Shown here one piece after another: positions 5,251-38,876 of a stretch of 64,000 nucleotides of DNA. A program made the translations under genes and the position numbers. Every line of letters starts with the position of its first letter. Within the stretch, counting starts at the first letter, position 1. A model generated the notes under the pieces. That model saw only the letters and a list, made by a program, of their open reading frames with translations. It was not told the DNA's origin and did not search any database. Origin of the DNA: a virus; the IMG/VR virus record IMGVR_UViG_3300050343_000150, positions 27,748 to 91,747 of that record. One strand, written 5' to 3'.

Positions 5251-8200
5251 TGGCTGATTCAGATAAAGATATTGTAATTACACCAAATACAGGGAACACC
5301 ACAAAACCAAAAATAGAATTTACTGGTGCAGATAATTCGGTTAAATATCTACAAGTTAACGATGATGGTAGTCTAACATTCAATGATACGATAACCGCAA
5401 CATCCGGTTCAGTTGCAAATGGGAATCAAAATTTAGTTACTGGAACTGCGGTGTTTGGTTATATTTCTGCGCGAAATTTTATATCAAACAATTCTAATAT
5501 AACAGTTGGTAATAATATAGGATTAGCAGGAGCATCAGGTAATAGTTTACGAATTACAACTGCACAAGCGGCCTCTAATGGTGCGATTTTATCATTCGTT
5601 GGAAGTGATAATAACAGTATAAGTAATCTGACAATACCATCGGGTGATGGAACAATATCAACTTCTGACACTCAACTTACCACTGAAGAAGTTCAAGATA
5701 TAGTTGCCGCTATGATAGTCGGCGGTACTAATATTTCCGCAGCATATAATGATTCAGGTGGACTTTTAACTCTTGCAGTAAATGGACATAGAACAGTTAC
5801 AGCAGGTGGTAACACATTAGGTGCAACAGAAACACTTGCCCTAACTGCTGGCTCTAATGTTACGATTAGTGAAAGTGGAGGAGCAGTTACTATTGCTTCA
5901 ACAGATACTAATACTGACACAAATACACAGAATGTTTTCACATCCTCATTTGTTGATTCATCTAATGATACTATACTCAGGTTAACTAAAAGTGGTGCAT
6001 CAAGTGGTACTCAGGACATTAAGTTTGTAGCAGGTTCTAATGTAACATTAACACCTAGTGGAACAAATTTAACTATTGCTTCTACTGATACTAATACACA
6101 ATTATCATTACTTGACGAAGATAACTTTGCATCAAACAGCGCAACTGCTGCTGCTAGTCAACAGTCAATTAAATCATATGTAGATACTTCAGTTTCTAAT
6201 TTGGTGGCATCTGCACCTTCTGCATTAGATACTTTAAATGAACTTGCAGCAGCCTTAGGAGACGACGCGAGTTTTTCCACAACAACTGCTACTTCTCTAG
6301 GTAATAGACTTAGAATAGATGTAAGTAATCAAGGATTAAATTCTACACAACAGAGTAATGCTTTAACTAATTTAGGAATTACAGCAACATTAGCAGAAAT
6401 AAACATATTAGATGACGGACTTGCAACAGGAGATATACCTGCATTAGCCACTTCTAAAATCACATCGGGAACATTTGCTGATGCTAGAATAGCACAATCG
6501 AATGTTACTCAACATCAATCGGCTTTATCTATAACTGAATCACAAATTAGTGATTTACAATTTAAATTATTACCTGAAGTTCTATTTAACGATACTAATT
6601 TTGGGTTCAGTTTACTAATACAAACAGGTACTACTAACGCTGCCCCAACAACAGGTACGCTAGATAATGCAACTTTCAATATAGGATTAGGAAGTAATGT
6701 ATTTTCTTCATTAACATCAGGAACAAGAAATGTTGCTGTTGGACATGAAGCGGGGAGAAATTTAACAACTTCTGCTAGAAATACATTACTTGGTGCAGAA
6801 GCAGGACATGATATTACTACTGGTGGTAACAATGTTGCAATAGGAGATTTAGCCGGAGATAAAATTACTACTGGAAGCCAAAATACGTTGATTGGTGCAG
6901 AAAGTGGAGGAAATATTACTACTACATCATACAGTATAGGTTTAGGTAATAAAGCATTACTAGGTTCAACTGGAACAGCAAATATAGGAATAGGTTATCA
7001 GAGCCTTAACCATACTTCTCATTCAGGTTCATACAATGTAGCAATAGGACATCAAGCCGCACATAATGCTACGGGGGCAAATGGTAACAACATCGGTATT
7101 GGTAAATCATCATTGTATAATGTTACAGGAGGTTATAATTATGCAATAGGTGACGAAAGCGGTCAAGGTATAACTTCAGGTAGTAGTAATATTGCAATAG
7201 GAAGTAAATCTTTAGGAGGCTCAGGTACAGTTGTTACAAATGCACATAATATCGCCATAGGTAATAATGCTCTAAAAACTGGAGGTACACTTTCCGGTGG
7301 GTTGAATACTGCATTTGGATATGCTACTGGAAGTTCCTTAACAACAGGTCAAGGAAATTTATTATTAGGATTTACAGCAGGGAACAATATTACTACTGGT
7401 AGTGAAAATATAGTAATCGGTGCAGCAGATGTACCTTCTGCTACTGGTAATCATCAATTGTCAATATCTGATAATGGTAATGGGTCAGTAGTATGGATTA
7501 CAGGTGATTCTTCGGGACACGTTTCTTTAGGAAACTATGAATTTAACGCTGACCAAACAGTAGGTTCAGGTCAAGACAATTACGTTTTAAGGTACGACCA
7601 CTCAACCGGACAAATCGGTTTGGAAGCAGCAGGTGCAGGTGGAGAAAACAATCAAAATGCTTTCAGTAATGTAGCAGTAAGTGGACAAACAACTGTCGCA
7701 GCAGATTCAGCAACTGATACTCTTACTCTAGCCGCAGGTGCTAATGTTACATTAACAACTAATGCATCTAATGATACAGTAACTATCGCAGCAACTGATA
7801 CTAACACCAATACTCAACTTTCAACAGAACAAGTACAAGATATTGTAGGTGGTATGCTTGTTGGAACAGAAACAAGAATTGGTGTAAGTTATGATGATAC
7901 TAACGGTAGAATTAACTTTGTTGTAGATGATATGACAACAGATACTAATACATTTAGAACAGTAACTGCTGGAGGCAATACACTTGGTTCAAGTGAAACT
8001 CTTGCATTTACAGCAGGAAGTAATGTAACAATAACTGAATCCGGTGGTTCAGTAACAATAGCCTCAACAGATACCAACACTAACACTACTTACTCAGCAG
8101 GTAGTGGTATTGCTCTAAGTGGAACTACATTTAGTGTTGCAGGAGGAACTGGTTTATCCCAAACTTCTAGTGGGTTGGCATTATCACACTTAGGTATAGA

Positions 8201-11200
8201 AAGTCTTTCTGACCCTAATGCTGATAGGATTCTAATTTGGGATGATTCAGCAGGGGCTATTGCATTTGCTACACCAAACAGTAACATTTCAATTGATGGT
8301 ACAAATATTAACACTACTAACACACAACTTTCTACTGAGCAGGTGCAGGATATAGTAGGTGCAATGTTAGTAGGTACTGAAACTAGAATTGGTGTAACCT
8401 ATGATGATACAAACGGCAGGATTAATTTCGTAGTAGATGACATGACGGCAAACACCCAATTGACGTTGCTTGACCAAGACAATATGAGTTCGAACAGTGC
8501 TACCGCCGCAGCAAGTCAACAATCTATTAAGGCATATGTTGATGCAGAGATAGCAGGACTTGTTGATTCGTCTCCTAGTGCATTAAATACCCTAAACGAA
8601 TTAGCGGCGGCTCTTGGAGATGATGCTTCATTTTCAACTACTACGGCTACTTCTTTAGGAAATAGATTGAGAGTAGATGTAAATAACCAAGGTTTAAACT
8701 CAACTCAACAAGGAAATGCACTAACAAATCTAGGAATAACTGCCTCACTTGCTGAGATTAATATTCTAGATGGTGGATTAGCAGCATCTAACATTACTGA
8801 AATATCTAATTTGACAGCAGCAGAAGGAGAGCAATTAGAAAATATTGGTAGCACAACAATCTCCGCAACACAATGGGGTTATCTCGGTGGTTTAACTGCG
8901 GCAAAAGTAATAGATTGGTCGGTATCACAAACATTTGATGATATTCATCCAAATAATCAACACTCAGCAGGTACTAACCTCACATTAAGCGGTACTACTC
9001 TTAATGTTGATGATGCTTTCTTAGTCAATAATGCTAACGATACTACAACGGGTACTATTACTGCGGCTGGTTTTACAACAGCAGGGATAGTTGATGGTGT
9101 TAATTTCAAAATAAATGGCGGTCAAGGTTCTGACGGTCAAGTTCTAACTTCAACTGGTTCAGGAGTTGCTTGGGAAGATGCCGCAAGTGGTGGTGATTCA
9201 AATGCAGGTGGTGTTAATGGTTCAGCAGGTGCGCCTACATTTTCATTTGCTTCTGATACTAATACAGGAATGTATAGATTAACAGGTGATACTTTAGCAT
9301 TCTCAGTTGGTGGTTCTAATGCTATGTATATGCAACCATCTAAGGTTGAAGCGAATAAAAGATTTGAAATTATTGCAGGTTCTAATTCTGCTCCGGGTTT
9401 GTCATTAGCAGGTGATGATAATACAGGAATATACCGATATGCAGAAAATCAAATAGGATTCACAACAGACGGAACGGCTCAACTATTGATTAAAGATGGT
9501 GCAATAGAACCTGTTACTGATAATGATATAGATTTAGGAACATCCTCTCTAAAGTTCAAAAACTCATACTTTGGGTTAGTAGATGCTGAAAACTTCAAAG
9601 TAAATGGAGGGCAAGGTAATGACGGCCAAATCCTAACTTCAACAGGTAGTGGTGTTGCATGGGAAAATGCCGCAGTTGGTGGTATAGCAAGTTTAGCCGC
9701 AGATGACACGCCACAGTTAGGTGGAGATTTAGATGTTAATGGAAATAGTATTGTTTCAACTTCAAACACTGCAATAAATATTACACCAAATGGAACAGGA
9801 GATATACAACTTAATGCTGATACTATTAGAGTAGGAGATTCTAATGCAGATGTTACAATTGCACCTAATATTAGCAGTACAACTGCTAAACTTCAATTTC
9901 AATCAGATGGAGATACATTACTTAGAACAGCAAGTGGTACAGGAAATATGTATCTTAATGCTAATTCATTAATGTCAATGCAAGCAACAACTTTTAGATT
10001 TGGTACTAGCGGGGGTAATCCAACATTAACTACATTAGGAACAAGTGATTTAACTCTTAATACAAATAGCGGAACAAACTCCGGTTCTATTGTAATTGCA
10101 GATGGTGCTAATAGTGATATTAGTATTACGCCAAATGGAACAGGTCAAGTAAACTTAGGTAACTTTCAATTTGATGTAGACCAAACAGTAGGTTCAGGCC
10201 AAGATAATTATGTATTAACTTACGACCATGCTAATACACAAATTAGTTTAGAAGCAGCAGGTGGTGGTGGTGCTTCTGATATTGGCGCACTAGATGATGT
10301 ATTGATGGATGCTACTAATTTCACTAATTCACTTTTAATTCAAACCAACAGCGATACATCCGCACCTACAACGGGTACACTAAGTAGTGCTAATGAAAAT
10401 ATAGGAATAGGTAGAGATGTATTCAAGGTCTTAACAAGTGGTTCACAAAACGTATCAATGGGGAGTTACACATTAGATGCAGTTACAACAGGTAGTAACA
10501 ATACCATCATCGGTCATAATGCGGGAACTAGAATTGAAGATGACTCAGAAAATACATACATCGGTCAGGGTGCAGGTGCTAATTCAATAGGCAGTTTCAA
10601 CGTAGCATTAGGTTCAAGTACGATGACAGGTAGCAGTTCAACACTTCATACTGGTAGTCATAACGTAGCACTAGGTCGTGGCGCGATGACTAAAGTTCAA
10701 GGAGATGCGGCAGGTAACGTAGCTGTATAACACAACAACAGGTGGTTACAACATTGGTATAGGTCAAAATGCTTTAGAAAGAAATACTACTGAAGGTAAT
10801 CAGATTGCCATTGGTTCATCCGCTATGGGTGGTGCATATAATCAAGCGGCGACAGGTGCATACAATCTTGCTATTGGGAATCAAGCCTTGAGATATGGCG
10901 CACAGGACAATGGAAACTTTAACATTGGAATAGGCTATAAAGCACTTTATGGCTCTAATGGTAATAGTAGTGCTGCTAATTATAATATAGCAATCGGTTA
11001 TGAAGCGTTAGAGGCAAATACAACCGGAGATAGTAACGTAGCAGTAGGAACACAAGCGTTAGAAGCAAACACAACAGGTACAAGAAATCTCGCAATAGGT
11101 TATCGTGCCTTAGATGCCGCAGATACAGAAAACGATAACATAGCAATAGGTTATGATGCTTTAGGTGGTTCAGTAGCAGGTGCAGAATACACAGTAGCAA

Positions 11201-27412: not shown

Positions 27413-28264
27413 TTATAACCATCTCATTAAAGAAGTGGAAGGTGTTACTGGTGTTTTTGTTTTACTGGTTCTATTTTTACGTAGTTTAAGTACTCTCAGT
27501 TCAGTGACTGAAAGTGTGTTTTTACAGTAGTCCTGAAAATCAGGGCTTTTTAGTAAGTCTTTGAAAAGATATACTTGAGAAGGCCGCATTTTAAGCCTCC
27601 GCAAAATTCTCGGTAATCTAGAATACTCTTTTCTTTGTGGTGGTGTCATCTTTCTGTACATTCTACCATCGTGGGCATATGCTAACATCTCGTAGAAGTA
27701 TGTTTTATTCCATTTTCTTTTTACTTTAGCATCAATAAACATTAATTTGTTAGGGTGAATATTGGGTGCTAGCCAAGAGATAAATTGTATATCAGCAGGT
27801 TCTGAAATTTTCAACATGTCTGCAATAACATCTCTATTTGAATTACGAAGGTAGTCGCCTACCATGGTGAAAATATCTACTTCATAATTTTGAGGTTCAA
27901 CTGAACGTGGTGCGATTTCATTTATTTCGTCTCGTAATGATTTCTTGGTTGCTCTTTTTAGTTTACATAAATTGTATAACTTCTTAGGTACATCTTTTTG
28001 ATTCATAGAACACAAAACTGTTTGTCCTCTATATTGTAAGATGGTTTTTCTAATTAAGTCAATATTAGGTTTGTAATTACACTCTCTGATAATTATTCCA
28101 ACATCAGCAGGAATACTTAGGTTGTCTTCGATATCATATTCATTAGCATACACGATGATAGGAGTATCTGATGTGTATTCTTTTGCTTTAGTTATTTTAT
28201 CTGTGCCTTCTTTTCCTACTATTATTATTGCTCTATTTTTATTGTTCATTGTCAATAGACTCAT
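27413..28264 (-). CDS. Degenerate AAA+ protein, possible clamp-loader large subunit
   Basis: IIIVGKEGTDK degenerate Walker A; near rfcS; C-terminal 'SLMRWL' PIP-like end. Confidence 0.45.
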   Translation of the reverse strand: MSLLTMNNKNRAIIIVGKEGTDKITKAKEYTSDTPIIVYANEYDIEDNLSIPADVGIIIRECNYKPNIDLIRKTILQYRGQTVLCSMNQKDVPKKLYNLCKLKRATKKSLRDEINEIAPRSVEPQNYEVDIFTMVGDYLRNSNRDVIADMLKISEPADIQFISWLAPNIHPNKLMFIDAKVKRKWNKTYFYEMLAYAHDGRMYRKMTPPQRKEYSRLPRILRRLKMRPSQVYLFKDLLKSPDFQDYCKNTLSVTELRVLKLRKNRTSKTKTPVTPSTSLMRWL

Positions 28265-28983: not shown

Positions 28984-30515
28984 TACAAATTATCGCTTAC
29001 AGTGATAATTGTGTCACATTCTGACGGATACTTATCATCTCTAATTCTTAGAATTCTAGGAAACCTCATACCATAAGAACCGTCTTGATTTTTTGTTATT
29101 GCATCACAACTAACTTCTACTACAATTCTAGGTAAGAAATAGAAAGTGTCTGCTTTATATGAATCAACAATCTTCTTTAGTCGAACTGTTAAAGAATCTA
29201 ACTCTTTCTCGGAAACTCCACTACCAACCTGTCCTATTTCAGTAAACCCTGTTATTGAATTATCATCCCTTACAGAAACACCGAAACTAGATATTACAGT
29301 AGTTCTTCTACCAGTTCCATAGTTGCCGGATGTAATTACTAAATCCAACTCAACCCTAGGAGGTTTATGTTTTAATAAACTACTACTTCTCTTAGATTCG
29401 TATGGGGAATCTAAGTTTTTTATCATAATACCTTCGAACCCGTCGTTAATTGCTGTGTAATATGCGGCTTCGATATTGTTATGGGAATACAATTTAGTTT
29501 GATATTCTGTTGGTACTAACTTCTTTAACACATCTAATCTAGATTCGTAAGTATTATCTATTAATACATTTGACTCACTTAACAGAATATCGAATATTAC
29601 TAGTTTAACAGGACACTTAAGAATGGCTTCTGCTTTATCCTTAGAATGTACTCTTGTTGCTAATGATTGATGTGCTGTCGGTTGACCTATATTGTCTACT
29701 GGATAAATCTCACAGTCAAATATTGCACTCTGTGTACTGAACATCAAAACTATTTCAACTATATCTGAATATTGTTCAGTTACTATTTTTCCCTTTCGGT
29801 TAAAGATGATTACACTATCTCCATGTCTATGTATCTGATATCGGTTTCCATCATACTTAGTATCAATTATATAATTGGTTGGTAAATTTTTACCATTGTA
29901 CTTTTTAGCCAACATAGGTTTAACATATGCCCCGTGTACTAAGTTAGGCGGCGTTATATCATTCTCAAGATAGTGTACTATCATCGATAACGAATTAGTT
30001 TTCGCATACACATCGACTTCTGAAGTGTAGTATTTAGATAATGTTTTAGTTACTATACTACAATCAACGCCATTTCTAGGTGTCCTCAACCAATATCTAA
30101 CAAACCATTTTAATTCCAAAGCAGACATACTTCTTATTGCATCTCTTATGGTGTAGAAACTATTAGAATTCATAGAAGAACAATCTAGTTCTAACAATCT
30201 ATGAAATTGCTCAGTAGATATTTGTGAATCAGAAGGACTTAAAGAAAACCCTTCTTGAATAAGGCCTTCACCTAAATCTAACCACTTGTGAGTAGCGTCT
30301 TCTATTTCCCATTCAAACACACCAAATATATCTGCTAACCATTTGACTGCTTTTTTCTCTGCTATATTGTTCATCTCATATTCACGTGATAAAATTCTGA
30401 TAACTCTTGGTTTATCAGTAAAGTGAGATAGACTGGAATTAAGTATCTCTATTTTTCTTGTTGGTGTTACGGATTCTAGTGCTTCACACATCCTGCTCAT
30501 TTTTATTAAACTCAT
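28983..30515 (-). CDS. lig: ATP-dependent DNA ligase
   Basis: KYDGNR, FDCE, FDIL, EGIMIK, VGSG, RFPRILRIRDDK. Confidence 0.95.
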   Translation of the reverse strand: MSLIKMSRMCEALESVTPTRKIEILNSSLSHFTDKPRVIRILSREYEMNNIAEKKAVKWLADIFGVFEWEIEDATHKWLDLGEGLIQEGFSLSPSDSQISTEQFHRLLELDCSSMNSNSFYTIRDAIRSMSALELKWFVRYWLRTPRNGVDCSIVTKTLSKYYTSEVDVYAKTNSLSMIVHYLENDITPPNLVHGAYVKPMLAKKYNGKNLPTNYIIDTKYDGNRYQIHRHGDSVIIFNRKGKIVTEQYSDIVEIVLMFSTQSAIFDCEIYPVDNIGQPTAHQSLATRVHSKDKAEAILKCPVKLVIFDILLSESNVLIDNTYESRLDVLKKLVPTEYQTKLYSHNNIEAAYYTAINDGFEGIMIKNLDSPYESKRSSSLLKHKPPRVELDLVITSGNYGTGRRTTVISSFGVSVRDDNSITGFTEIGQVGSGVSEKELDSLTVRLKKIVDSYKADTFYFLPRIVVEVSCDAITKNQDGSYGMRFPRILRIRDDKYPSECDTIITVSDNL

Positions 30516-30732
30516 TATTATTCCTCATTTTAATTACTTTTTCGAGAGCCTTGTGAACATCTTTCATCTCGTCCATGTTCATTCTAATACCTTTTTTGGT
30601 AGGATTACCATTTATATGCCAACGCACATCTACTACATGTAATTTCCAATATTCGCCAGTTCTGATGATTAACTCATTACTAGCGTCTCTTGGTATTCTC
30701 GCAATTATTTTTTCATCCTTCAAGCCAACCAC
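30484..30732 (-). CDS. PC4/YdbC-like ssDNA-binding protein
   Basis: VDVRWH...PTKKGI signature. Confidence 0.8.
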   Translation of the reverse strand: MVGLKDEKIIARIPRDASNELIIRTGEYWKLHVVDVRWHINGNPTKKGIRMNMDEMKDVHKALEKVIKMRNNNEFNKNEQDV

Positions 30733-31126
30733 TCCTAAATTGTTGTAGGGTTTTCCACGACTTAAAATATCGTGGTGATTCTTGTTTATCTATTCTGTGT
30801 GCAACCCAAACAACACCACCGAGACTACTTATCTTAACCAATTCATACGTTTTACCTTCAACATCGAACATATCTTCTGTTTGCACATCAGGTACTAAAC
30901 CAAACTTCTGTGATAACTCATTAGCCACCTCATCCATATGTTCAGCGACATACTGAACAATCAAATGTCTTTGTATTGGTACTTTAGCATCAACTGTTAC
31001 CTTAATCTTACCCTGCATTTCACATACCTTACATTTATTACCTTCACAAATAGGACAAGGGATTTCCGCAGGTAGCGGAGCAGGAAAGCGAATTGTTACA
31101 GCCTTCTTCATATTCTGCCATCCCAA
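30713..31126 (-). CDS. Zn-finger protein (DnaJ-type CxxCxG repeats)
   Basis: CPICEGNKCKVCEMQG. Confidence 0.55.
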   Translation of the reverse strand: MGWQNMKKAVTIRFPAPLPAEIPCPICEGNKCKVCEMQGKIKVTVDAKVPIQRHLIVQYVAEHMDEVANELSQKFGLVPDVQTEDMFDVEGKTYELVKISSLGGVVWVAHRIDKQESPRYFKSWKTLQQFRSGWLEG

Positions 31127-31699: not shown

Positions 31700-32245
31700 T
31701 TATTCTTCCTCCAATGCTTTTTCTGCTGCTTCAACCCATGCCGGTTTCTTAGAACCTTCTTTTTGATAAATAGCATAGTTTACTTTCTTTGCAATTTCTG
31801 TTGCTGTATCATATGCAATATATTGGTTATCACCTAATACAGTTGCACTTAACATTACAGATTTCCATGTATGTATAGTGTTCCAATCTGTTCCGCTAAA
31901 GAATGCTTGACCAAAAGGGTGTGTGTGTATCCAACATTTGATTGGTAATTTCATACCACCTAGTTGTTCTTCTTGGTCCTTGAAACTAACGAAACCAAAC
32001 GTCCCTACACTAATGTATAAATCATCTTTGCTATCTACAATAACTTGTACTTCTCTAGGAGAATCAAATGCATTCAATGACATGTCCCAAATAACAGAAT
32101 AAAATGCTTCTGTTGCTGCATTAGGATATGGATAACTAAACTGTATTTGTTGAAATACTTGTCTAATATTATCCTGCCATTTCTCATCCTTAATTTCAAT
32201 TTTATTTTCTATCCAATCACTATCTTCTGTTTTTATTTCATTCAT
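31700..32245 (-). CDS. JAB/JAMM (MPN+) metallo-isopeptidase
   Basis: REVQ Glu, WIHTHP, FSGTD = E...HxHx7Sx2D. Confidence 0.85.
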   Translation of the reverse strand: MNEIKTEDSDWIENKIEIKDEKWQDNIRQVFQQIQFSYPYPNAATEAFYSVIWDMSLNAFDSPREVQVIVDSKDDLYISVGTFGFVSFKDQEEQLGGMKLPIKCWIHTHPFGQAFFSGTDWNTIHTWKSVMLSATVLGDNQYIAYDTATEIAKKVNYAIYQKEGSKKPAWVEAAEKALEEE

Positions 32246-32507
32246 TTTCCAACACTTCCTTTGCTTTAAGCAATGCTCCCACTAAATTATTAATGTCTCT
32301 AGCGTGTAGAGGTTCATTACTATTCATAAAAGCCATTTTTAATCTGACTGCCATAACCACTGTATCATTACAGTTACTACAACACCTACCATTATTTATT
32401 GGTTCTGCGTTATGTCCTTCTGTCCAATAAGGCACACCTTCTTCTGTATATTTAATATCTATTACATCTTCACATATACTACATTGTTTCATTTCTATTT
32501 TATTCAT
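32238..32507 (-). CDS. Small Zn-finger protein
   Basis: CSIC...GHNAEP..GRCCSNCN. Confidence 0.6.
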   Translation of the reverse strand: MNKIEMKQCSICEDVIDIKYTEEGVPYWTEGHNAEPINNGRCCSNCNDTVVMAVRLKMAFMNSNEPLHARDINNLVGALLKAKEVLENE

Positions 32508-32750
32508 TTATATTCCTCCCATTTGTTTTACTATTGTATCCTGAGCATTTTCAAATTCATGATATGCTCTATGACCTGCAATGAATCCACCTGCATGTCT
32601 TTTAGTTCCTAAGAACTCTTCACCACAAGCAGGGCAAGATACTTGCACAATCTCTGCTTGTTTGTAATATCCGTCGGTAGATATCACATCCATTATTTCA
32701 CCGACATCTTCTTCTGATATATCATCTATGTTTGCGTCTTCTTTACTCAT
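32508..32750 (-). CDS. Small C2H2-like Zn protein
   Basis: CPAC...H...H. Confidence 0.55.
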   Translation of the reverse strand: MSKEDANIDDISEEDVGEIMDVISTDGYYKQAEIVQVSCPACGEEFLGTKRHAGGFIAGHRAYHEFENAQDTIVKQMGGI

Positions 32751-33016
32751 ATTTTCACCTTCAAATAATACCTCAATGTTTTAGTTGGTTTGGGTATGTG
32801 TTCCAACGGAGATTCTACTTTCCTCTTGATAGTTTTCTTTACATCGACTTTCGATACTTCTTGTCGTACAAGTATATCTCTTCTATATTGTTCCCTCCAC
32901 ATAACTTGAATACAGTCATTACATAACCTTCTACTATTTGCCAAGTGTTCAGGAACAGGCTCATCCTCTTTACCACAAAGAGTCTTACCTAATATTGAGA
33001 AGCAGATGTACTTCAT
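32747..33016 (-). CDS. Small Zn-binding protein
   Basis: C...TLCG...CNDC. Confidence 0.5.
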   Translation of the reverse strand: MKYICFSILGKTLCGKEDEPVPEHLANSRRLCNDCIQVMWREQYRRDILVRQEVSKVDVKKTIKRKVESPLEHIPKPTKTLRYYLKVKI

Positions 33017-33243
33017 TCTCCCTTCTCCTTGTAGGCAGGATGTGTCTTCGGCAACCTGTGCAGTCTTCTCACAATCATATTGTTTACTAAAGCAGCAGCA
33101 GATTCTGCACCGTCATTAAATCTCTTTAACGCGACTGCATCTCCGGTCGGACACATCTCTTGTTCCAGTAAAGTTAGGTCTATCTCATTCATGATAAATT
33201 TCAATACTTCATACTCGACATGAATTTTAGATGCTGCTCTCAT
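33013..33243 (-). CDS. Hypothetical protein
   Basis: ATGA overlaps on both sides. Confidence 0.55.
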   Translation of the reverse strand: MRAASKIHVEYEVLKFIMNEIDLTLLEQEMCPTGDAVALKRFNDGAESAAALVNNMIVRRLHRLPKTHPAYKEKGE

Positions 33244-33836
33244 AGGTTCACCATCTTCATATCTATAACATCATCATTATCATTAAACCAACGTTGAATC
33301 CACTGAACACCCATACCTGCTATTACCATATTCATACAGTTAATATCTTCCGCACTACCATCCCATGATTGTGCTTGACATGAAAAAGAACCTTCTTCTC
33401 CTGCTAAAAGAGTATTCATTAAGTCCGGATTTATTTTGTATGATACTAATGCAGCGTTCCTTCCAGTGGAACGTAGGTCTAACCACTTTAATTTTGTATC
33501 ATTCCCAAAACCCTGTTTGTATAATAAACGTCTTACTGCTAGGTTATCTGCACAACAGATAACTAAATCATATCCTTTAAGTTGTTTTTCTACAAGTACA
33601 TTAAATGGTTGTGCGTTAATACCTTGGATACATTCTACTTTCTTTTCACCTATATCTAATTCATCAAATGCTTGATAACCAAGATTCTTTCTATCCACAA
33701 CATCATCGTCAAATACAGTAATGTCATACAGATGAGTATTTGGAGTGTTATTCCTGTGTGCTTGATTCATTCTCTTGAGAAACTGTACTAGATAACTACC
33801 AATTCCTCCTGCTCCTACAATCATAACTCTTCTCAT
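33240..33836 (-). CDS. ThiF/MoeB/E1-like adenylyltransferase (Ubl-activating enzyme)
   Basis: VGAGGIGS, FDDDVVDRKNL, K, CCADNLAVR, WLD, and FSCQ Cys at the crossover-loop position. Confidence 0.9.
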   Translation of the reverse strand: MRRVMIVGAGGIGSYLVQFLKRMNQAHRNNTPNTHLYDITVFDDDVVDRKNLGYQAFDELDIGEKKVECIQGINAQPFNVLVEKQLKGYDLVICCADNLAVRRLLYKQGFGNDTKLKWLDLRSTGRNAALVSYKINPDLMNTLLAGEEGSFSCQAQSWDGSAEDINCMNMVIAGMGVQWIQRWFNDNDDVIDMKMVNL

Positions 33837-34105
33837 TTCAAATCACCTTCCCAAATACCACTGAAAAGTATTAGGGTTTGTTCATCTATTTCCGATGTAA
33901 ATATTGTACCGCTTCTCATATGTATATCAATTACATACATTGCCTTCTTCAACATTGAAGTTGGGGTTTTAGCCACGGTAAAGGCAACACATTCGGATAC
34001 ATCTATTGTTGTCATTCCACTTTTAGTTTCTATCTTTATTTTCTTTCTGTTCATTTTCATTATCTCCATAATATATTTTTTGTTGTTGTTGGTGTCTCCA
34101 TGCAT
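33833..34105 (-). CDS. Small hypothetical protein (paralog family)
   Basis: IDVSECVAFT...YVIDIHMRSG. Confidence 0.5.
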   Translation of the reverse strand: MHGDTNNNKKYIMEIMKMNRKKIKIETKSGMTTIDVSECVAFTVAKTPTSMLKKAMYVIDIHMRSGTIFTSEIDEQTLILFSGIWEGDLK

Positions 34106-34280
34106 CGATTATTTCATGCGTGATTCCATCCATTGTTGCGCCTACGACACTTAGTGCATCTTCTAACACAGTTCTTCGCACTACATTCCTCAACTGTGGT
34201 AGTTTTTCGTATTCTTCTATTACCATACTAAAATGGTATTGCATTTTCTTTAGTGTTTGTATTATATTATCTTCCATCAA
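34023..34280 (-). CDS. Hypothetical protein
   Basis: ORF overlapping the tfb stop. Confidence 0.45.
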   Translation of the reverse strand: MMEDNIIQTLKKMQYHFSMVIEEYEKLPQLRNVVRRTVLEDALSVVGATMDGITHEIIDAWRHQQQQKIYYGDNENEQKENKDRN

Positions 34281-35146
34281 TATGCCCCGCTTAAAAATTG
34301 GTCTACATCCATTTCCATTAGTTCTTTTTTAGTAAGACCTAATGAATTAGACAAGTCCTTGGTTGCCATACGCAATCCGATTGTAGAAGCATTTCCTGAC
34401 TTATCTACTAACTCTGTTTGTGTATGGATTTCATCTTCCATCTGTCCTACTAACCAAAGAGTAGCACAGATTAAATTGGTAGTATATCTTTTACCAACCT
34501 CATTGAAAAACACTTCAATGTGTTCAACAACTCGTATTGATTTACTTCTATAATTAGAAGATACATTATCTAATTTGTCAAGAATACCTATTGTTATTAG
34601 AACAGGGTTATGTGATGACAGTATGTGTGATTTTCTAAAGAATCTTGCAATACGTTTTGCGTATTTAGATATCTTACTTTTACTCACTTTACTATATCCA
34701 CTGTGTTGTTTCAAAACAACTGGGACACCTGCCTCCTTTAACATAAAATATGTTAATGCTGCTGCTCTATCTTCTATTGGTATACCTCGTAAAACATGTT
34801 CATTTTTTAATGAGATAAAATATCCTTTGACACTATTCCTAATGTCTGAGGAAACATTGTAATAAGACAATATCATATTACACAATCTAAACATTCTCTT
34901 ATCTGCTTCAGTATAGGGATTGCTCCAAATATTTTGTGTTTTAAGTCTATAACTCATCTTAGTAGGAGTTTCAATAATATGAGAACCTAAATCTCTTGTT
35001 ACTTCGTAAGAAGAATCTTCTTTCCACTTAACCGTCTCTTCAAAGGGTCGTATCATTTGAATCAACCCACAACTTGAACACACTTTTTCACCCAATACTT
35101 CGTCGAAGTAGTATGTATTGTGATTACACTCAACGCAAGCCATCAT
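34277..35146 (-). CDS. tfb: Transcription initiation factor B (TFB/TFIIB) homolog
   Basis: N-terminal Zn ribbon CVEC...GEKVCSSCG; cyclin-fold repeats with RG.PIE..AAA..Y. Confidence 0.8.
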   Translation of the reverse strand: MMACVECNHNTYYFDEVLGEKVCSSCGLIQMIRPFEETVKWKEDSSYEVTRDLGSHIIETPTKMSYRLKTQNIWSNPYTEADKRMFRLCNMILSYYNVSSDIRNSVKGYFISLKNEHVLRGIPIEDRAAALTYFMLKEAGVPVVLKQHSGYSKVSKSKISKYAKRIARFFRKSHILSSHNPVLITIGILDKLDNVSSNYRSKSIRVVEHIEVFFNEVGKRYTTNLICATLWLVGQMEDEIHTQTELVDKSGNASTIGLRMATKDLSNSLGLTKKELMEMDVDQFLSGAY

Positions 35147-36489
35147 TTATACAACGCTCCCGGATATTTATCTTCGACCCATTTCTTGACAGGCATAGAT
35201 TCTTCAGTATGTGTTAAATTAAATACATCACTATCACTTAGTCGATAAGTTGTAGAGTCAACACGTGCTAGAGTATGAATCATTGATTTAGCCACTACAT
35301 CATTCTTCAATATCATTGCCCTTGCTGCTATTTGGTCGCCAATACTAGAATTACCATGTAAATTATCTATACAGAAAGGCCCAAGATATTCGAACCCTCC
35401 ACCATATGCATTACCTTCCTTACCTATCACGAATACAACTTTAACACTTTGATGTCTAGAATCAGGAGAAGAAGGATAAACAATCCAGTCTCCTAACTTC
35501 CCTCTTACTAACATTGAGAAATCATAGGTTTTAGATATTGTAAGTTTACTAAAGTACTTAGAAAGCCACTTTTTATTACGTATTAAAAATAACTCTTTAT
35601 GAGAATCATCTAATTCTACCAATAGTTCTTTGGCTCTAGTTTCCACCATCTTAGATGTTCTATTTTGTTTCAACCATGCTGTCATTAATGTAAGTTCGGA
35701 ATCACTAGGTTCTGATTTCATTATGTTAGTCCACAATTTTTTAGGAGAAATATTAGCCCACTTAGTAGACCTTGATTTATTATATCGGTAACTATCAATC
35801 AAGGTGTTGACATCTTTAATGTTTATACTTCCCCAAATACCATCACATAATTCTAGGGCGACTTCTTTTTTACTGATAGCAGTTAAATTAATCCTAACAG
35901 ATATCTTCTGCCCCATTTCATAAAAATGATATGGCATTCTGTTCTCTAATGCATACATTACATTTTCAGGATAATTTATACATCGGTCTATGTAATTATT
36001 CATAGCAACAGCACTTCTGTTATTTGCACCAAACATAATTATCTTTGATAGTGCAGAAACAATATCCTTCATGTTCTTATGCACCCCATTCATATGATAT
36101 CTAGACGAATCTTTTCTTAATAGAATAGAACTATCACCATCATTGTACCTAAAGGTAACATATGTAATAAATTCATCATTATCGCTAGTCCACATAGTTG
36201 TAAAAAATGTTTTTTTAACAACATTAGAGAACTCTACTAATAGTGGGTCATCGCTAACATGTCTACTACTTGCAATAGATGGCATTGGTATTTTAATTTC
36301 ATATTCACCGAATTTATTCAATCTATGTTTGCGAATAGAACCAACCACTCGACTCTTTGCATCAGATTTAACTAAGAAAGAACTGCTTCGCATATTACTA
36401 TTATCACTTATAGAAGGTATCAAGAATTTTATTTTCATATATATCACCGTATTCATCTTTATTGTCTGTATAGTATTTTTTAACACCAT
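35143..36489 (-). CDS. Hypothetical protein with C-terminal E2/UBC-like Cys motif (candidate Ubl-conjugating enzyme)
   Basis: GPFCIDNLHGNSS (35344-35382) resembles the E2 active-site pattern GxICLDILxxxWS; HPN motif absent. Confidence 0.4.
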   Translation of the reverse strand: MVLKNTIQTIKMNTVIYMKIKFLIPSISDNSNMRSSSFLVKSDAKSRVVGSIRKHRLNKFGEYEIKIPMPSIASSRHVSDDPLLVEFSNVVKKTFFTTMWTSDNDEFITYVTFRYNDGDSSILLRKDSSRYHMNGVHKNMKDIVSALSKIIMFGANNRSAVAMNNYIDRCINYPENVMYALENRMPYHFYEMGQKISVRINLTAISKKEVALELCDGIWGSINIKDVNTLIDSYRYNKSRSTKWANISPKKLWTNIMKSEPSDSELTLMTAWLKQNRTSKMVETRAKELLVELDDSHKELFLIRNKKWLSKYFSKLTISKTYDFSMLVRGKLGDWIVYPSSPDSRHQSVKVVFVIGKEGNAYGGGFEYLGPFCIDNLHGNSSIGDQIAARAMILKNDVVAKSMIHTLARVDSTTYRLSDSDVFNLTHTEESMPVKKWVEDKYPGALYK

Positions 36490-36697
36490 ACAATTCCTTA
36501 ACTTTATCCCAACTTTTTATTTTAGAATAGCCCATTCTAATATAGTAAACTATTCTTCTTTCAGCATACTTCGCAGTCACTGAACCATCTTCGAGGTGTC
36601 GGAAAACTACCTCGGTAGATTTTTTTGCTCCATTATTTGTCATGGAAGATATTATTTCTGATTTAAGAAATATTAACTTATTTCTATCCATTTTCAT
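36404..36697 (-). CDS. Hypothetical protein
   Basis: ATGA overlap with the nrdJ stop. Confidence 0.5.
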   Translation of the reverse strand: MKMDRNKLIFLKSEIISSMTNNGAKKSTEVVFRHLEDGSVTAKYAERRIVYYIRMGYSKIKSWDKVKELYGVKKYYTDNKDEYGDIYENKILDTFYK

Positions 36698-38586
36698 ATT
36701 TCACAAACTCCACCTGCACAGGCTAACTCCCCTTGCAAGTTTGTGTTGTCCATTGATTCATAAACTTCAGATAAATCAATGCTCTGAAGTAACATAAACA
36801 TTTTTTGATATGTCTCTTTATCAATTGCTTCGAAAGGTGCTTGTTTATACAACCCACCATCATATGGTAAAACAGAAAGACCATTGTAATAGTCTCTATT
36901 TTTCCACATCCAATTCTTAACATCATCCCATTCGTCTTCACGAATATTAACTGTGGCAGATACATTGTGAGTATTGACACCTCTATTGTGTCCACTCATT
37001 ACCCACCTGACAGAGAATTCTTTGACTCGTTCTAACATCTCTAATGCAGATTCTTCTCTAGTAATCACATTACCATCAGGAGTTTTCTGAGGTATAGATA
37101 TGATTGCCTGATTAGGATTGAAGTAATCGTCTTCTACTAATTCAGGTAATTTGTTTAGCAGGTATGTGTAAATTGCTTCTGTTTTTAGAACTCTAAGTCT
37201 CCTAATATAATATTCAGAAAACCATCCATGGATTCCTGAAGAAGAACCTAATACTAGACTAGTAGTTCCCGCAGGTTTTACACAAGTTATTCTTGCAGCA
37301 GTTCTGATACCCAAAAGAGTTGCAAATTTTTCGTTTTCTTTCCTAGCAACATCTGCCGCCTTCTCTAAATCTAAACTAGAAACTTTATTGCTAGCAATAC
37401 CTGTCATAGACACTCCTAGTAATGCATCCTTCTCAGAAGTTCTTTTCCAAACTTCTCTCAAATAGTGAAAATCTGTATAAGATGCTTGTAGTGTTCCCAA
37501 GAAAGCAGCAATAGCAACTCTCATGTTTAAATCAGATTGGTCTGTAACAGTAGAAGCATTAACTTCTGTTAGGTTACAGAACTGATATGGTCTTAGTGCT
37601 ATTTCACAACACGGATTAGTTCCCCAGTCCTTATCATTAGTTAGATAAAATCCCGGTTCTCCAGTTCCGGACTCTTGAACTCTAGTCCATAAATTATTAA
37701 AGAAATCTCTTTTTATTCTATGTCTTAATAGAACAACAGAATTATTCGCTCTTGCTCTCTGAGGATTAGTGTCCCAAAATTGTCCTGATTTACAAGTCAA
37801 CATTTCATCATCGTCTGCACTAAACAAACTAATTAGTGCTGCACGTCTAATACCTCCTGCTAATACTGCATCAGCAATATAACAAACAATATCGTGTGCT
37901 TCTAATGAAGATAGTTTGTCCCCATTAGTCTTACTAGAAAGAATACCTTCAACTTTAACTAGACATTCTTTTAGTGGTTGTGGACCGGGTGCTTTTCCAC
38001 CACTAGTTTTCAATGGTGAACCCTTAGGTCTAATATCAGAATAGTCGAAGCGAACTGTTGTTGCTCTTTTACCGATATAAGATTCGAATAGTACTTTTAC
38101 TGCATCAGCCCAACCCTCAATAGAATCACTAACTAAGTGTCTATATGTTCTACTAGGATTAGGTAATATAATTTCGGGTAATTTATCTACGTGGTGTCTT
38201 TGTACTGAGAAGCCCACGCCTGTTCCTCCCAAAAGTAAGAACATTGCTTCTGCAAATGATACATAGGAATCAATTGGCATATAAGCACAATTGTATACTC
38301 TATTAGGAGATAACTCAATCGGTTTACCTGCAAATTGCATTGACCTCATTGAAGGTAATACTTTCTTAGGTATAACAAAATTTTCATATGCATTGTGTAT
38401 TGCAGCAATTAATTCTGTTTCTGATTCTTTAGTAATCCCATCTCTAGTGCTTACTGATTTGATATGCATATCCATATTGCGCTTACATATTTCTTCCCAT
38501 GTTTCTCTACGCATTTTCATTTCATTATATTTACCGTATTTCATATGTACTGTTATATCTGATAATATCTCTTGTTGTAATTCCAT
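36694..38586 (-). CDS. nrdJ: Class II (adenosylcobalamin) ribonucleotide reductase
   Basis: NCAY, GGIRRAA, TNPCCEI, CNLTE, KPAGTTS, YKQAPFE, C-terminal CAGGVC. Confidence 0.95.
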   Translation of the reverse strand: MELQQEILSDITVHMKYGKYNEMKMRRETWEEICKRNMDMHIKSVSTRDGITKESETELIAAIHNAYENFVIPKKVLPSMRSMQFAGKPIELSPNRVYNCAYMPIDSYVSFAEAMFLLLGGTGVGFSVQRHHVDKLPEIILPNPSRTYRHLVSDSIEGWADAVKVLFESYIGKRATTVRFDYSDIRPKGSPLKTSGGKAPGPQPLKECLVKVEGILSSKTNGDKLSSLEAHDIVCYIADAVLAGGIRRAALISLFSADDDEMLTCKSGQFWDTNPQRARANNSVVLLRHRIKRDFFNNLWTRVQESGTGEPGFYLTNDKDWGTNPCCEIALRPYQFCNLTEVNASTVTDQSDLNMRVAIAAFLGTLQASYTDFHYLREVWKRTSEKDALLGVSMTGIASNKVSSLDLEKAADVARKENEKFATLLGIRTAARITCVKPAGTTSLVLGSSSGIHGWFSEYYIRRLRVLKTEAIYTYLLNKLPELVEDDYFNPNQAIISIPQKTPDGNVITREESALEMLERVKEFSVRWVMSGHNRGVNTHNVSATVNIREDEWDDVKNWMWKNRDYYNGLSVLPYDGGLYKQAPFEAIDKETYQKMFMLLQSIDLSEVYESMDNTNLQGELACAGGVCEI

Positions 38587-38672
38587 TTAATTTCATCTCC
38601 TTTAGATTGTTGATATGGGCTTTGCACCCACTCGGTAGTCGTATCGTCTAAACTACTAAGACAGTTTACGGT

Positions 38673-38876
38673 CTAACATCCACCGACGACGGCAGGTATT
38701 AGGTTTACTTCAGTTACCGAATCCCAACTAACTGTTGAAATGTTTTCACGTGTAACTAAGTCTCCATCAACGAAAACCCAATGTGTTGGGTGGTCATTGA
38801 TTTGTTCTATCGCTTGCTCAGAAGTTAATTCCGGCAAGGTTGTGTGTCCTGTTTCATTCATTATTATCATTTTCAT
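38673..38876 (-). CDS. Ubiquitin-like (ThiS/MoaD/SAMP beta-grasp) protein ending ...PAVVGG-C
   Basis: 67 aa; VFVDG, EVNLIPAVVGG as in ThiS/MoaD C-termini; one extra Cys before TAG. Confidence 0.8.
   Translation of the reverse strand: MKMIIMNETGHTTLPELTSEQAIEQINDHPTHWVFVDGDLVTRENISTVSWDSVTEVNLIPAVVGGC

Follow-up and report, generated by a model that had tools for sequence, protein, structure and literature searches.

Ubiquitin-like conjugation in prokaryotes is treated as host anti-phage defence in the literature examined, with Bil, Bub, and CBASS Cap2/Cap3 as the examples (PMC10557695; PMC11601596). The bacterial Type I and II BilABCD systems consist of four parts, a ubiquitin-like protein (Ubl) whose C-terminal Gly is exposed by a JAB-family protease, an E1 with an inactive and an active adenylation domain and an inserted catalytic Cys domain, a Cys-bearing E2-like carrier, and the JAB itself (PMC10557695). 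Otherwise, such tagging is studied as archaeal SAMPylation, in which a beta-grasp di-Gly modifier, the MoeB/ThiF-like E1 UbaA and the JAMM protease HvJAMM1 take part (PMC4443979; PMC2948915). The archaeal SAMP system is described as working without an E2. Small beta-grasp carriers ending in GG and single-domain adenylating E1 enzymes are also found in the sulfur-carrier systems ThiS/ThiF, MoaD/MoeB and QbsE/QbsC/QbsD. In the Qbs and CysO/Mec+ systems a JAMM enzyme acts on the C-terminus of the carrier. A further ThiF-type protein belongs to the PRTRC (ParB-related, ThiF-related cassette) of plasmids and ICEs (NCBIfam TIGR03734-03742).

A comparable gene set was analyzed in a window of 64,000 nucleotides (IMG/VR record IMGVR_UViG_3300050343_000150, positions 27,748 to 91,747), which comes from a magrovirus-type tailed archaeal virus of the ocean. 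The 91.7-kb genome encodes a portal, a prohead protease, a tail tube, a split PolB and a TFIIB-like protein, so the genes belong to a virus and not to a bacterial defence island with an anti-phage role as in Bil. The original prediction of a Ubl, an E1, a JAB protease and a candidate E2 on one strand was confirmed as an observation, since all four ORFs are present at the stated coordinates on the minus strand. They are dispersed among the genes of the replication and early gene block. Among 81 related viral loci, down to 47% E1 identity, Ubl, p448, E1 and JAB keep their order in every locus that reaches the expected positions, and the catalytic residues are conserved.

The Ubl gene (38673-38876) encodes 67 amino acids ending in PAVVGG-C. 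The Pfam model ThiS (PF02597) was reached only with E 0.094 and 13.7 bits against a gathering score of 22.5, and the family profile gave no hit among the PDB sequences. However, the AlphaFold2 model (pLDDT 90.4) shows a beta-grasp with bbabb(a)b topology, and its structural neighbours are almost all ubiquitin, Ubl, MoaD and ThiS proteins. The top 50 Foldseek hits are ubiquitin or MoaD at a probability of 0.9-0.98, and the top rows of the VIA-wide structural comparison are Fubi, the Ddi1 UBL, MoaD, the parkin Ubl, a chain of a bacterial E1-E2-Ubl complex (8tyz_B), ThiS, CysO, SAMP1, and TtuB at Z 4-5.1. In about 60 relatives the GG is invariant and is followed by 0-3 variable residues, the mark of a ubiquitin-like precursor, while four relatives end exactly at GG. 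As the residue after GG is variable, the terminal Cys has no special meaning.

The E1 gene (33240-33836) encodes a ThiF-type enzyme of only 198 amino acids (Pfam ThiF, E 4.7e-15, above the gathering score). Its profile hits UBA5, Cap2, MoeB, MccB, and Uba1 in the PDB, but over the N-terminal half only (residues 1-99), and there is no room for a second domain. The enzyme therefore lacks the inactive adenylation domain and the inserted Cys domain of the Bil E1 and carries a loop cysteine in an S-C-Q motif instead. This cysteine, C153, which the original prediction gave as part of an FSC motif, is at least 97% conserved. The enzyme belongs to a broad "mini-E1" family with 585 cluster representatives at E<=1e-10, and most of the 150 listed representatives are 190-205 amino acids long. 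Conserved family-wide are GxGGxGS, D43, D45, K66, D97, R102, R122, and the S-C-Q motif, whose cysteine is near-invariant. It is not a UbaA equivalog (NF047750, 28.6 bits against a cut-off of 450) and is much shorter than UbaA. The best NCBIfam match is PRTRC_ThiF (E 6e-16), but the 58.5 bits are below the cut-off of 144.75 and cover only the N-terminal 125 residues. No PRTRC model was hit by JAB, Ubl, p448, the 80-residue protein o80 described below or five other neighbouring proteins.

The JAB gene (31700-32245) encodes a JAMM/MPN+ metalloprotease of 181 amino acids with the full E..HxHx7Sx2D motif. Pfam Prok-JAB was reached only with E 0.003, below the cut-off, but a profile of 13 relatives hits AMSH-LP, AMSH and an Rpn11-like protein in the PDB at E 1.5e-4 to 1e-3. 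The residues E65, H107, H109, S117, and D120 are at least 97% conserved in 74 sequences.

The fourth gene (35143-36489), p448, encodes a protein of 448 amino acids as annotated, although the alignment with relatives suggests that translation probably starts at Met18, at about position 36438. No hit was found in Pfam, NCBIfam, PADLOC, PHROGs or PDB sequences, and no sequence method links the protein to any E2, including BilB and CEHH. The AlphaFold2 model has a low confidence (pLDDT 63.8 overall and below 50 around Cys373) and shows a helix, a four-strand meander, a loop carrying Cys373 and further helices. About two thirds of the 50 VIA-wide rows are UBC, UEV or RWD folds over residues 277-420, but only at Z 3.1-4.8, and Foldseek gave weak Rad50/SMC rows instead. 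C373, D375, G384, D385, Q386, and R390 are at least 97% conserved in 69 sequences. The C-terminal domain (residues ~277-420) is regarded as a candidate E2-like carrier.

Homologous genes were also found outside the magroviruses. On many non-magrovirus viral contigs, uncultured bacteriophages encoding a sigma-70 factor and PolA, they form a contiguous operon of a ~700-amino-acid protein, a Ubl ending in LVGG, a JAMM protease and a mini-E1, an order close to the Bil order Ubl-E2-DUB-E1. The Ubl (hhalign 98.6%, E 1.1e-15 over 73 columns) and the mini-E1 (HMM E 1e-31 to 1e-33) are homologous to those of the magrovirus. For the JAMM protease, the active-site motif is present in both, but hhalign gave only 49% and E 1.7e-4 over 27 columns. 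A version without JAMM, consisting of the ~700-amino-acid protein, a mini-E1 and a GG-ended protein, occurs on Methanoperedens, Methanosarcinales, and Aenigmatarchaeota MAG contigs. The C-terminus of p448 matches that of the ~700-amino-acid proteins of the phage and archaeal cassettes (hhalign 95.5%, E 1.5e-8), in a domain with the motif C-I-x-D ... G-x-D ... R ... L-x-N-D ... I-x-T-L/I. This link rests on a 43-column profile match, and as p448 itself is not detected by the full-length HMM of the ~700-amino-acid family, only the C-terminal domain is shown to be shared. The candidate carriers range from 430 to 870 amino acids. Of 24 distinct phage Ubl sequences, 14 end exactly at GG, yet a JAMM gene is present in the locus. 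In one phage locus (L119) the Ubl domain ends in EGG and is fused to about 160 further residues.

Based on this, the gene set is more likely than not a virus-borne Ubl activation and conjugation system, and viruses of both domains would then tag proteins themselves. In this model, the Ubl is made with a short variable tail, which the JAMM protease would remove to expose Gly-Gly. The mini-E1, presumably a homodimer like MoeB or ThiF, would adenylate the terminal Gly and probably take the Ubl onto C153. The Ubl would then pass to Cys373 of p448, whose remainder would select targets, and end up on lysines of viral or host proteins. The JAMM enzyme probably also removes conjugates, as most phage relatives keep it although their Ubl already ends in GG. 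The identities and folds (for p448 at low model confidence only), the conserved residues and the gene linkage across distant viruses come from the analysis itself, whereas cleavage, activation, transfer and conjugation, as well as any target, are inferred. The interpretation given in the original prediction is thus partly supported. The identities of Ubl, E1, and JAB hold, the candidate E2 gains real but not decisive support from a UBC-like fold in a low-confidence model, an invariant Cys in the right loop and homology to the constant partner protein of the Ubl/JAB/mini-E1 operons in phages, and the absence of sulfur-relay partners, which had been claimed for the window, holds for the whole genome at Pfam E<=1e-3. 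In contrast, the idea that the virus steers the host proteasome remains conjecture and is made less likely by the occurrence of related genes as an operon in bacteriophages that encode a sigma-70 factor.

A sulfur-carrier role is less likely but not excluded. Here, the trimmed and adenylated Ubl would be converted to a thiocarboxylate and donate sulfur to a nucleic-acid or metabolite thiolation, carried out by p448, the ~700-amino-acid protein or a host enzyme such as an NcsA/TtuA-type tRNA thiolase. The only Pfam hint of the Ubl is ThiS, the Ubl resembles MoaD, ThiS, CysO, and TtuB as much as ubiquitin, the E1 is a single MoeB/ThiF-like domain, and conserved cysteines on E1 and on the partner would fit persulfide or acyl-disulfide chemistry. 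As the Qbs and CysO/Mec+ systems have the same design, a JAMM enzyme plus a C-terminally extended Ubl does not by itself separate conjugation from sulfur transfer, and a dual role as in the SAMP system is possible. However, the E1 has no rhodanese domain, and no rhodanese, desulfurase, MoaE, ThiG or PP-loop enzyme appeared among the 25 families inspected, of 27 matched, when 117 predicted proteins of the genome were scanned with Pfam at E<=1e-3, leaving out three proteins of more than 1000 amino acids; a host could still supply such partners. Furthermore, the Cys domain of the partner is modelled as UBC-like and not as a known sulfurtransferase, and the fused Ubl precursor of L119 and a second GG-ended non-Ubl protein fit processing and conjugation better.

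It is also unlikely, though possible, that E1, Ubl, and JAB act alone in an E2-independent tagging of the SAMP type, with p448 and the ~700-amino-acid proteins being the main target, a scaffold or an unrelated replication-module protein that merely travels with the cassette. The missing sequence evidence for an E2 fits this view, and so does the gene arrangement in the magrovirus, where p448 is separated from E1 by the TFIIB-like gene and from Ubl by the ribonucleotide reductase gene. On the other hand, the partner family is adjacent to a mini-E1 and a GG-ended protein in three very different genomic backgrounds, and the only region shared across all three groups is the small C-terminal domain with the invariant Cys, modelled as UBC-like. 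The gene set differs from the SAMP system in its conserved Cys-domain partner and in the variable pro-tail of the Ubl. A chance co-occurrence of unrelated or decaying genes, suggested only by their lack of contiguity in this window, is very unlikely given the 81 loci with conserved order and catalytic residues and the contiguous related genes in other viruses.

No paper describing this system was found, and the three magrovirus papers examined do not mention these genes. In contrast to the defence systems, the machinery here belongs to the viruses themselves, an abundant group of ocean archaeal viruses and many uncultured phages, uses a minimal E1 of about 195 amino acids and has a candidate carrier matching no catalogued family. 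If the chemistry is confirmed, it would show that viruses of prokaryotes use Ubl tagging as an offensive or regulatory tool, would give a very small E1-E2 pair for mechanistic work and would add a branch to the history of ubiquitin-like systems which spans bacterial and archaeal viruses.

Finally, an additional gene, o80 (32508-32750, minus strand), which was not part of the original prediction, was identified between E1 and JAB. It encodes a zinc-ribbon-like protein of 80 amino acids, in which C39, C42, H52, H60, H64, and G78-G79 are invariant in 13 relatives. Of 46 distinct homologues, 44 end in GG plus exactly one residue (I/V/A/Q/T/L), and o80 is a candidate second substrate of E1 and JAB. 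A tentative and rather unlikely reading is that magroviruses run a two-modifier pathway, in which Ubl and the unrelated o80 would both be trimmed by the JAMM enzyme, activated by the mini-E1 and conjugated through Cys373 of p448. The latter would then represent a virus-specific E2 family shared by bacteriophages and archaeal viruses and unrelated in sequence to known E2s, and the targets would lie in the neighbouring transcription and replication machinery, next to a TFIIB-like gene here and to a sigma-70 factor and PolA in the phages. The o80 gene lies between E1 and JAB in the closer relatives, whereas in the more distant ones it is absent, relocated or without GG. No family hit was obtained for o80, and its ESM Atlas neighbours are virus-only clusters. 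RNA-library contigs from marine samples cover Ubl, o80, E1, and part of JAB, which is a weak hint only in favour of the conjugation system.

The analyzed window comprises bases 27748-91747 of a single 91,747-base contig. Its predicted proteins include portal, prohead protease and tail-tube proteins, a split family-B DNA polymerase, two ATP-dependent ligases, an ERCC4 nuclease, a B12-dependent ribonucleotide reductase and a protein with a TFIIB zinc ribbon. A split polymerase, ribonucleotide reductase, two ligases and a size near 100 kb are the features given by Philosof et al. for group B magroviruses (PMC5434244). The stretch was found in many marine viral metagenomes, covering 17 studies in all. 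Based on this gene content, a magrovirus-type virus of Marine Group II archaea can be inferred, and no magrovirus host is known to be cultured. Two contigs of this virus family (L084 and L085) are filed in bacterial MAGs (Altibacter, Maricaulis), which is probably a binning artefact rather than a sign of the host.

The original prediction had named four ORFs for a Ubl, an E1, a JAB protease and a candidate E2, and its observation held, as all of them are present on the minus strand at the positions described here. The E1 (33240-33836) matches Pfam ThiF with an E-value of 4.7e-15. Its family profile matches UBA5, CBASS Cap2, MoeB, MccB and Uba1 in the PDB, over the N-terminal half only. No NCBIfam equivalog was reached, the best being PRTRC_ThiF with 58.5 bits against a cut-off of 144.75.

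The JAB protein (31700-32245) is weak in Pfam (E 0.003), but a profile of 13 relatives hits AMSH-like and Rpn11-like JAMM proteases in the PDB (E 1.5e-4). The residues E65, H107, H109, S117 and D120 are at least 97% conserved in 74 sequences, and the spacing is the canonical HxHx7Sx2D. Next to JAB lies an 89-aa protein (32238-32507, minus strand) with the pattern C-x2-C ... H ... C-C-x2-C, a possible treble-clef zinc binder, which is present in only 4 of the first 19 related loci.

The Ubl (38673-38876) shows only a faint ThiS hint in Pfam (E 0.094), and a search of its family profile against PDB sequences gave nothing meaningful. However, its AlphaFold model is confident (pLDDT 90.4) and has a strand-strand-helix-strand-strand-(helix)-strand topology. 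The best 50 chains found with Foldseek are ubiquitin or MoaD. A Foldseek-independent structure search returned Fubi, Ddi1 and parkin Ubl domains, MoaD, a chain of a bacterial E1-E2-Ubl complex (8tyz_B), ThiS, CysO, SAMP1 and TtuB at Z 4-5.1. In about 60 relatives GG is invariant and is followed by 0-3 variable residues, with four sequences ending exactly at GG. This is the signature of a ubiquitin-like precursor, and it also shows that the terminal Cys in this window has no special meaning. The magrovirus Ubl further contains three invariant histidines (H11, H29 and H32, in G-H-T and H-P-x-H-W motifs), of which only the first is shared with the phage Ubls (G-H-D/T-E). A metal site or an E1/E2 contact is possible.

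The candidate E2, p448 (35143-36489), was not recognized by any sequence method, since searches of Pfam, NCBIfam, PADLOC, PHROGs and the PDB gave no hit. A homologue search with its C-terminal domain returned only the same unannotated viral family. Alignment with relatives suggests that the real start is Met18. The AlphaFold model is only moderate (pLDDT 63.8). In this model, residues 279-426 form a long helix, a four-strand meander, a loop carrying the invariant Cys373, and then helices, which is the order of elements in an E2 core. In a structure search of 48,161 representative chains, 19 of the 50 rows are E2 enzymes as counted by eye, and about a dozen more are UEV or RWD domains. All of these align to residues ~277-420, at Z 3.1-4.8. 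Each Z is low, but the enrichment for one superfamily is far beyond chance. Foldseek instead gave weak Rad50/SMC/RecF rows (probability 0.18 or less), which were rejected because TM is about 0.1 and no P-loop (GxxGxGKS) motif was seen in the sequence. The ESM Atlas model of p448 is poor (pLDDT 0.33) and its neighbors are meaningless. A UBC-like fold with a catalytic Cys seems likely, but is far from certain.

The strongest evidence comes from comparative genomics. An alignment-based scan found 235 IMG/VR loci with a relative of the E1. In the 81 of these loci that were compared, Ubl, p448, E1 and JAB keep their order wherever the locus reaches, down to 47% E1 identity. This is one syntenic lineage in which every neighboring gene is also conserved, so that it shows purifying selection but not specific linkage. 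Conserved across the relatives are also a 137-aa protein (30713-31126, minus strand) with a C-P-x-C-x-G-x-x-C-x-x-C motif resembling a DnaJ-type zinc finger, and an 82-aa protein (30484-30732, minus strand) with a weak hit to PC4, an ssDNA-binding coactivator (E 0.0014).

A profile search of 1.84 billion cluster representatives found 585 proteins of this mini-E1 family at E<=1e-10. Among the 150 inspected, most are 190-205 aa long and match the whole profile. They share the nucleotide-binding residues and a near-invariant S-C-Q motif, whose cysteine is C153 in the E1 of this virus. Among the distant relatives are 400-470-aa proteins with two ThiF stretches in tandem (P0137, P0167, P0175, P0178, P0199 and P0214). 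These are single-chain pseudo-dimers, reminiscent of the inactive-plus-active adenylation domain layout of larger E1s. In the GenBank phage records (INPHARED), neither a full-length mini-E1 nor a p448 homologue was found.

In non-magrovirus viral contigs, the mini-E1 is located in a contiguous operon consisting of a gene for a 630-870-aa protein, one for a 70-88-aa protein ending ...LVGG, sometimes with 1-3 extra residues, sometimes one for a 230-270-aa protein, one for a 142-170-aa JAMM protein, and the mini-E1 gene. In one of these contigs (L104) the genes downstream of the E1 encode a sigma-70 factor (E 7e-53) and a family-A DNA polymerase (E 1.5e-50), at 8146-8961 and 8952-10706 of this contig. 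The contigs were taken to be bacteriophages. In the magrovirus, a TFIIB-like gene (34277-35146, minus strand) lies between p448 and E1, so that in both cases the Ubl genes sit beside the virus's own transcription-initiation factor and its replication genes.

A different arrangement was found on five archaeal MAG contigs (Aenigmatarchaeota, Methanosarcinales, Methanoperedens). They carry a ~700-aa protein, the mini-E1 and a 79-166-aa protein ending KGG, in this order and without an adjacent JAMM gene. No significant similarity was detected between the magrovirus Ubl and these 79-166-aa GG-ended proteins. In four of the five contigs, Ku and ligase genes are next door. On the Methanosarcinales and two Methanoperedens contigs (L087:4053-5858, L088:3182-4975 and L089:4053-5858), the cassette lies directly downstream of a Ku gene, which was checked in L087 (E 4e-30), and of a ligase-like gene that was read by eye. 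In the magrovirus a ligase lies about 1.2 kb beyond the JAB gene. On one Methanoperedens contig (L088), a LAGLIDADG homing endonuclease gene (7150-7998, E 1.8e-12) is inserted between the ~700-aa partner gene and the mini-E1 gene, whereas related contigs lack it.

The phage and archaeal ~700-aa proteins form one family (HMM E 1e-42 to 1e-52). The magrovirus and phage Ubls match in hhalign with 98.6% and an E-value of 1e-15, and the magrovirus E1 matches the phage E1s with HMM E-values of 1e-31 to 1e-33. Full-length hhalign and HMM searches linking p448 to the ~700-aa proteins were weak, and only deeper C-terminal profiles gave a clear match. This match connects the p448 Cys domain to the C-terminus of the ~700-aa family (hhalign 95.5%, E 1.5e-8) over 43 columns with the pattern C-I-x-D ... 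G-x-D ... R ... L-x-N-D ... I-x-T-L/I. The sequence windows for this comparison were cut around the Cys motif, but the columns that carry the score lie beyond that anchor. Thus, p448 is a shortened member of the family that, in the contexts examined, always accompanies mini-E1 and a GG-ended protein. The only part shared by all versions is the small Cys domain. This is what one expects of a carrier, and it is independent support for the proposal of the original prediction that this protein is an E2 candidate.

The magrovirus Ubls nearly all carry a tail, and a JAMM gene is always present. In one phage contig (L119:5753-6457) a Ubl homologue whose beta-grasp domain ends ...EGG is fused to about 160 further residues, forming a natural fusion precursor that would need cleavage after GG. 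Yet 14 of 24 distinct phage Ubls end exactly at GG with a JAMM gene still present in the locus. Trimming therefore cannot be the only role inferred for the JAMM enzyme, and removal of conjugates is the obvious second one, although this is an inference.

A further protein, o80 (32508-32750), is located between E1 and JAB and had not been part of the original prediction. It consists of 80 amino acids with an invariant C-x2-C and three invariant His residues. In 44 of 46 distinct homologues it ends in GG plus exactly one variable residue, while the preceding dozen residues vary. In the more distant magrovirus loci it is absent, relocated or without GG. By analogy with CBASS, in which Cap2 conjugates a non-Ubl protein through its C-terminus (PMC10557695), o80 may be a second substrate of JAB and E1. 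This is a lead rather than a finding.

The identities of Ubl, E1 and JAB, the conserved residues and the gene linkage were established by the analysis, whereas all of the chemistry, including processing, activation and transfer of the Ubl, is inferred. A scan of 117 predicted proteins of the whole genome, without the three over 1000 aa, showed no rhodanese, desulfurase, MoaE, ThiG or PP-loop enzyme at Pfam E<=1e-3, and the E1 has no rhodanese domain. However, this does not decide between conjugation and sulfur transfer, as a host could supply the sulfur partners, and the combination of carrier, JAMM and E1 also describes the QbsCDE and CysO/Mec+ sulfur systems. Furthermore, the Ubl looks as much like MoaD or ThiS as like ubiquitin. 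What tips the balance is the conserved Cys-domain partner with its predicted UBC-like fold, the fused precursor and a second GG-ended protein. Conjugation is thus regarded as somewhat more likely than not, while a sulfur-carrier role seems unlikely and E2-independent tagging slightly less likely still. Altogether, the interpretation of the original prediction as a protein modification pathway was partly supported. Its suggestion that the virus steers the host proteasome remains a hypothesis, which is weakened by the presence of related genes in phages of bacteria.

The closest characterized systems are the bacterial BilABCD pathways (PMC10557695), which share the four roles, that of the carrier only as a candidate, and nearly the order of the phage operons. 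In contrast to these, the viral E1 lacks the defining multidomain architecture, the carrier candidate has no sequence relation to BilB or CEHH, and the genes are viral. The SAMP/UbaA, PRTRC and ThiS/MoaD systems each have a tested defining feature that the viral genes do not fulfill. Three magrovirus papers do not mention ThiF, JAB or ubiquitin, and full-text literature searches on such genes in magroviruses, other archaeal viruses, jumbo phages and phages in general found no description of this system.

Contigs from marine RNA libraries cover Ubl, o80 with its neighbors, part of E1 and the 3′ end of JAB. Two of the four runs are recorded as RNA, whereas for the other two RNA is only a guess. 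As DNA carry-over cannot be excluded, these contigs are a weak hint only, which neither proves transcription nor ranks the genes, and parts without cover have no meaning. Some of the contigs are 100% identical to the window.
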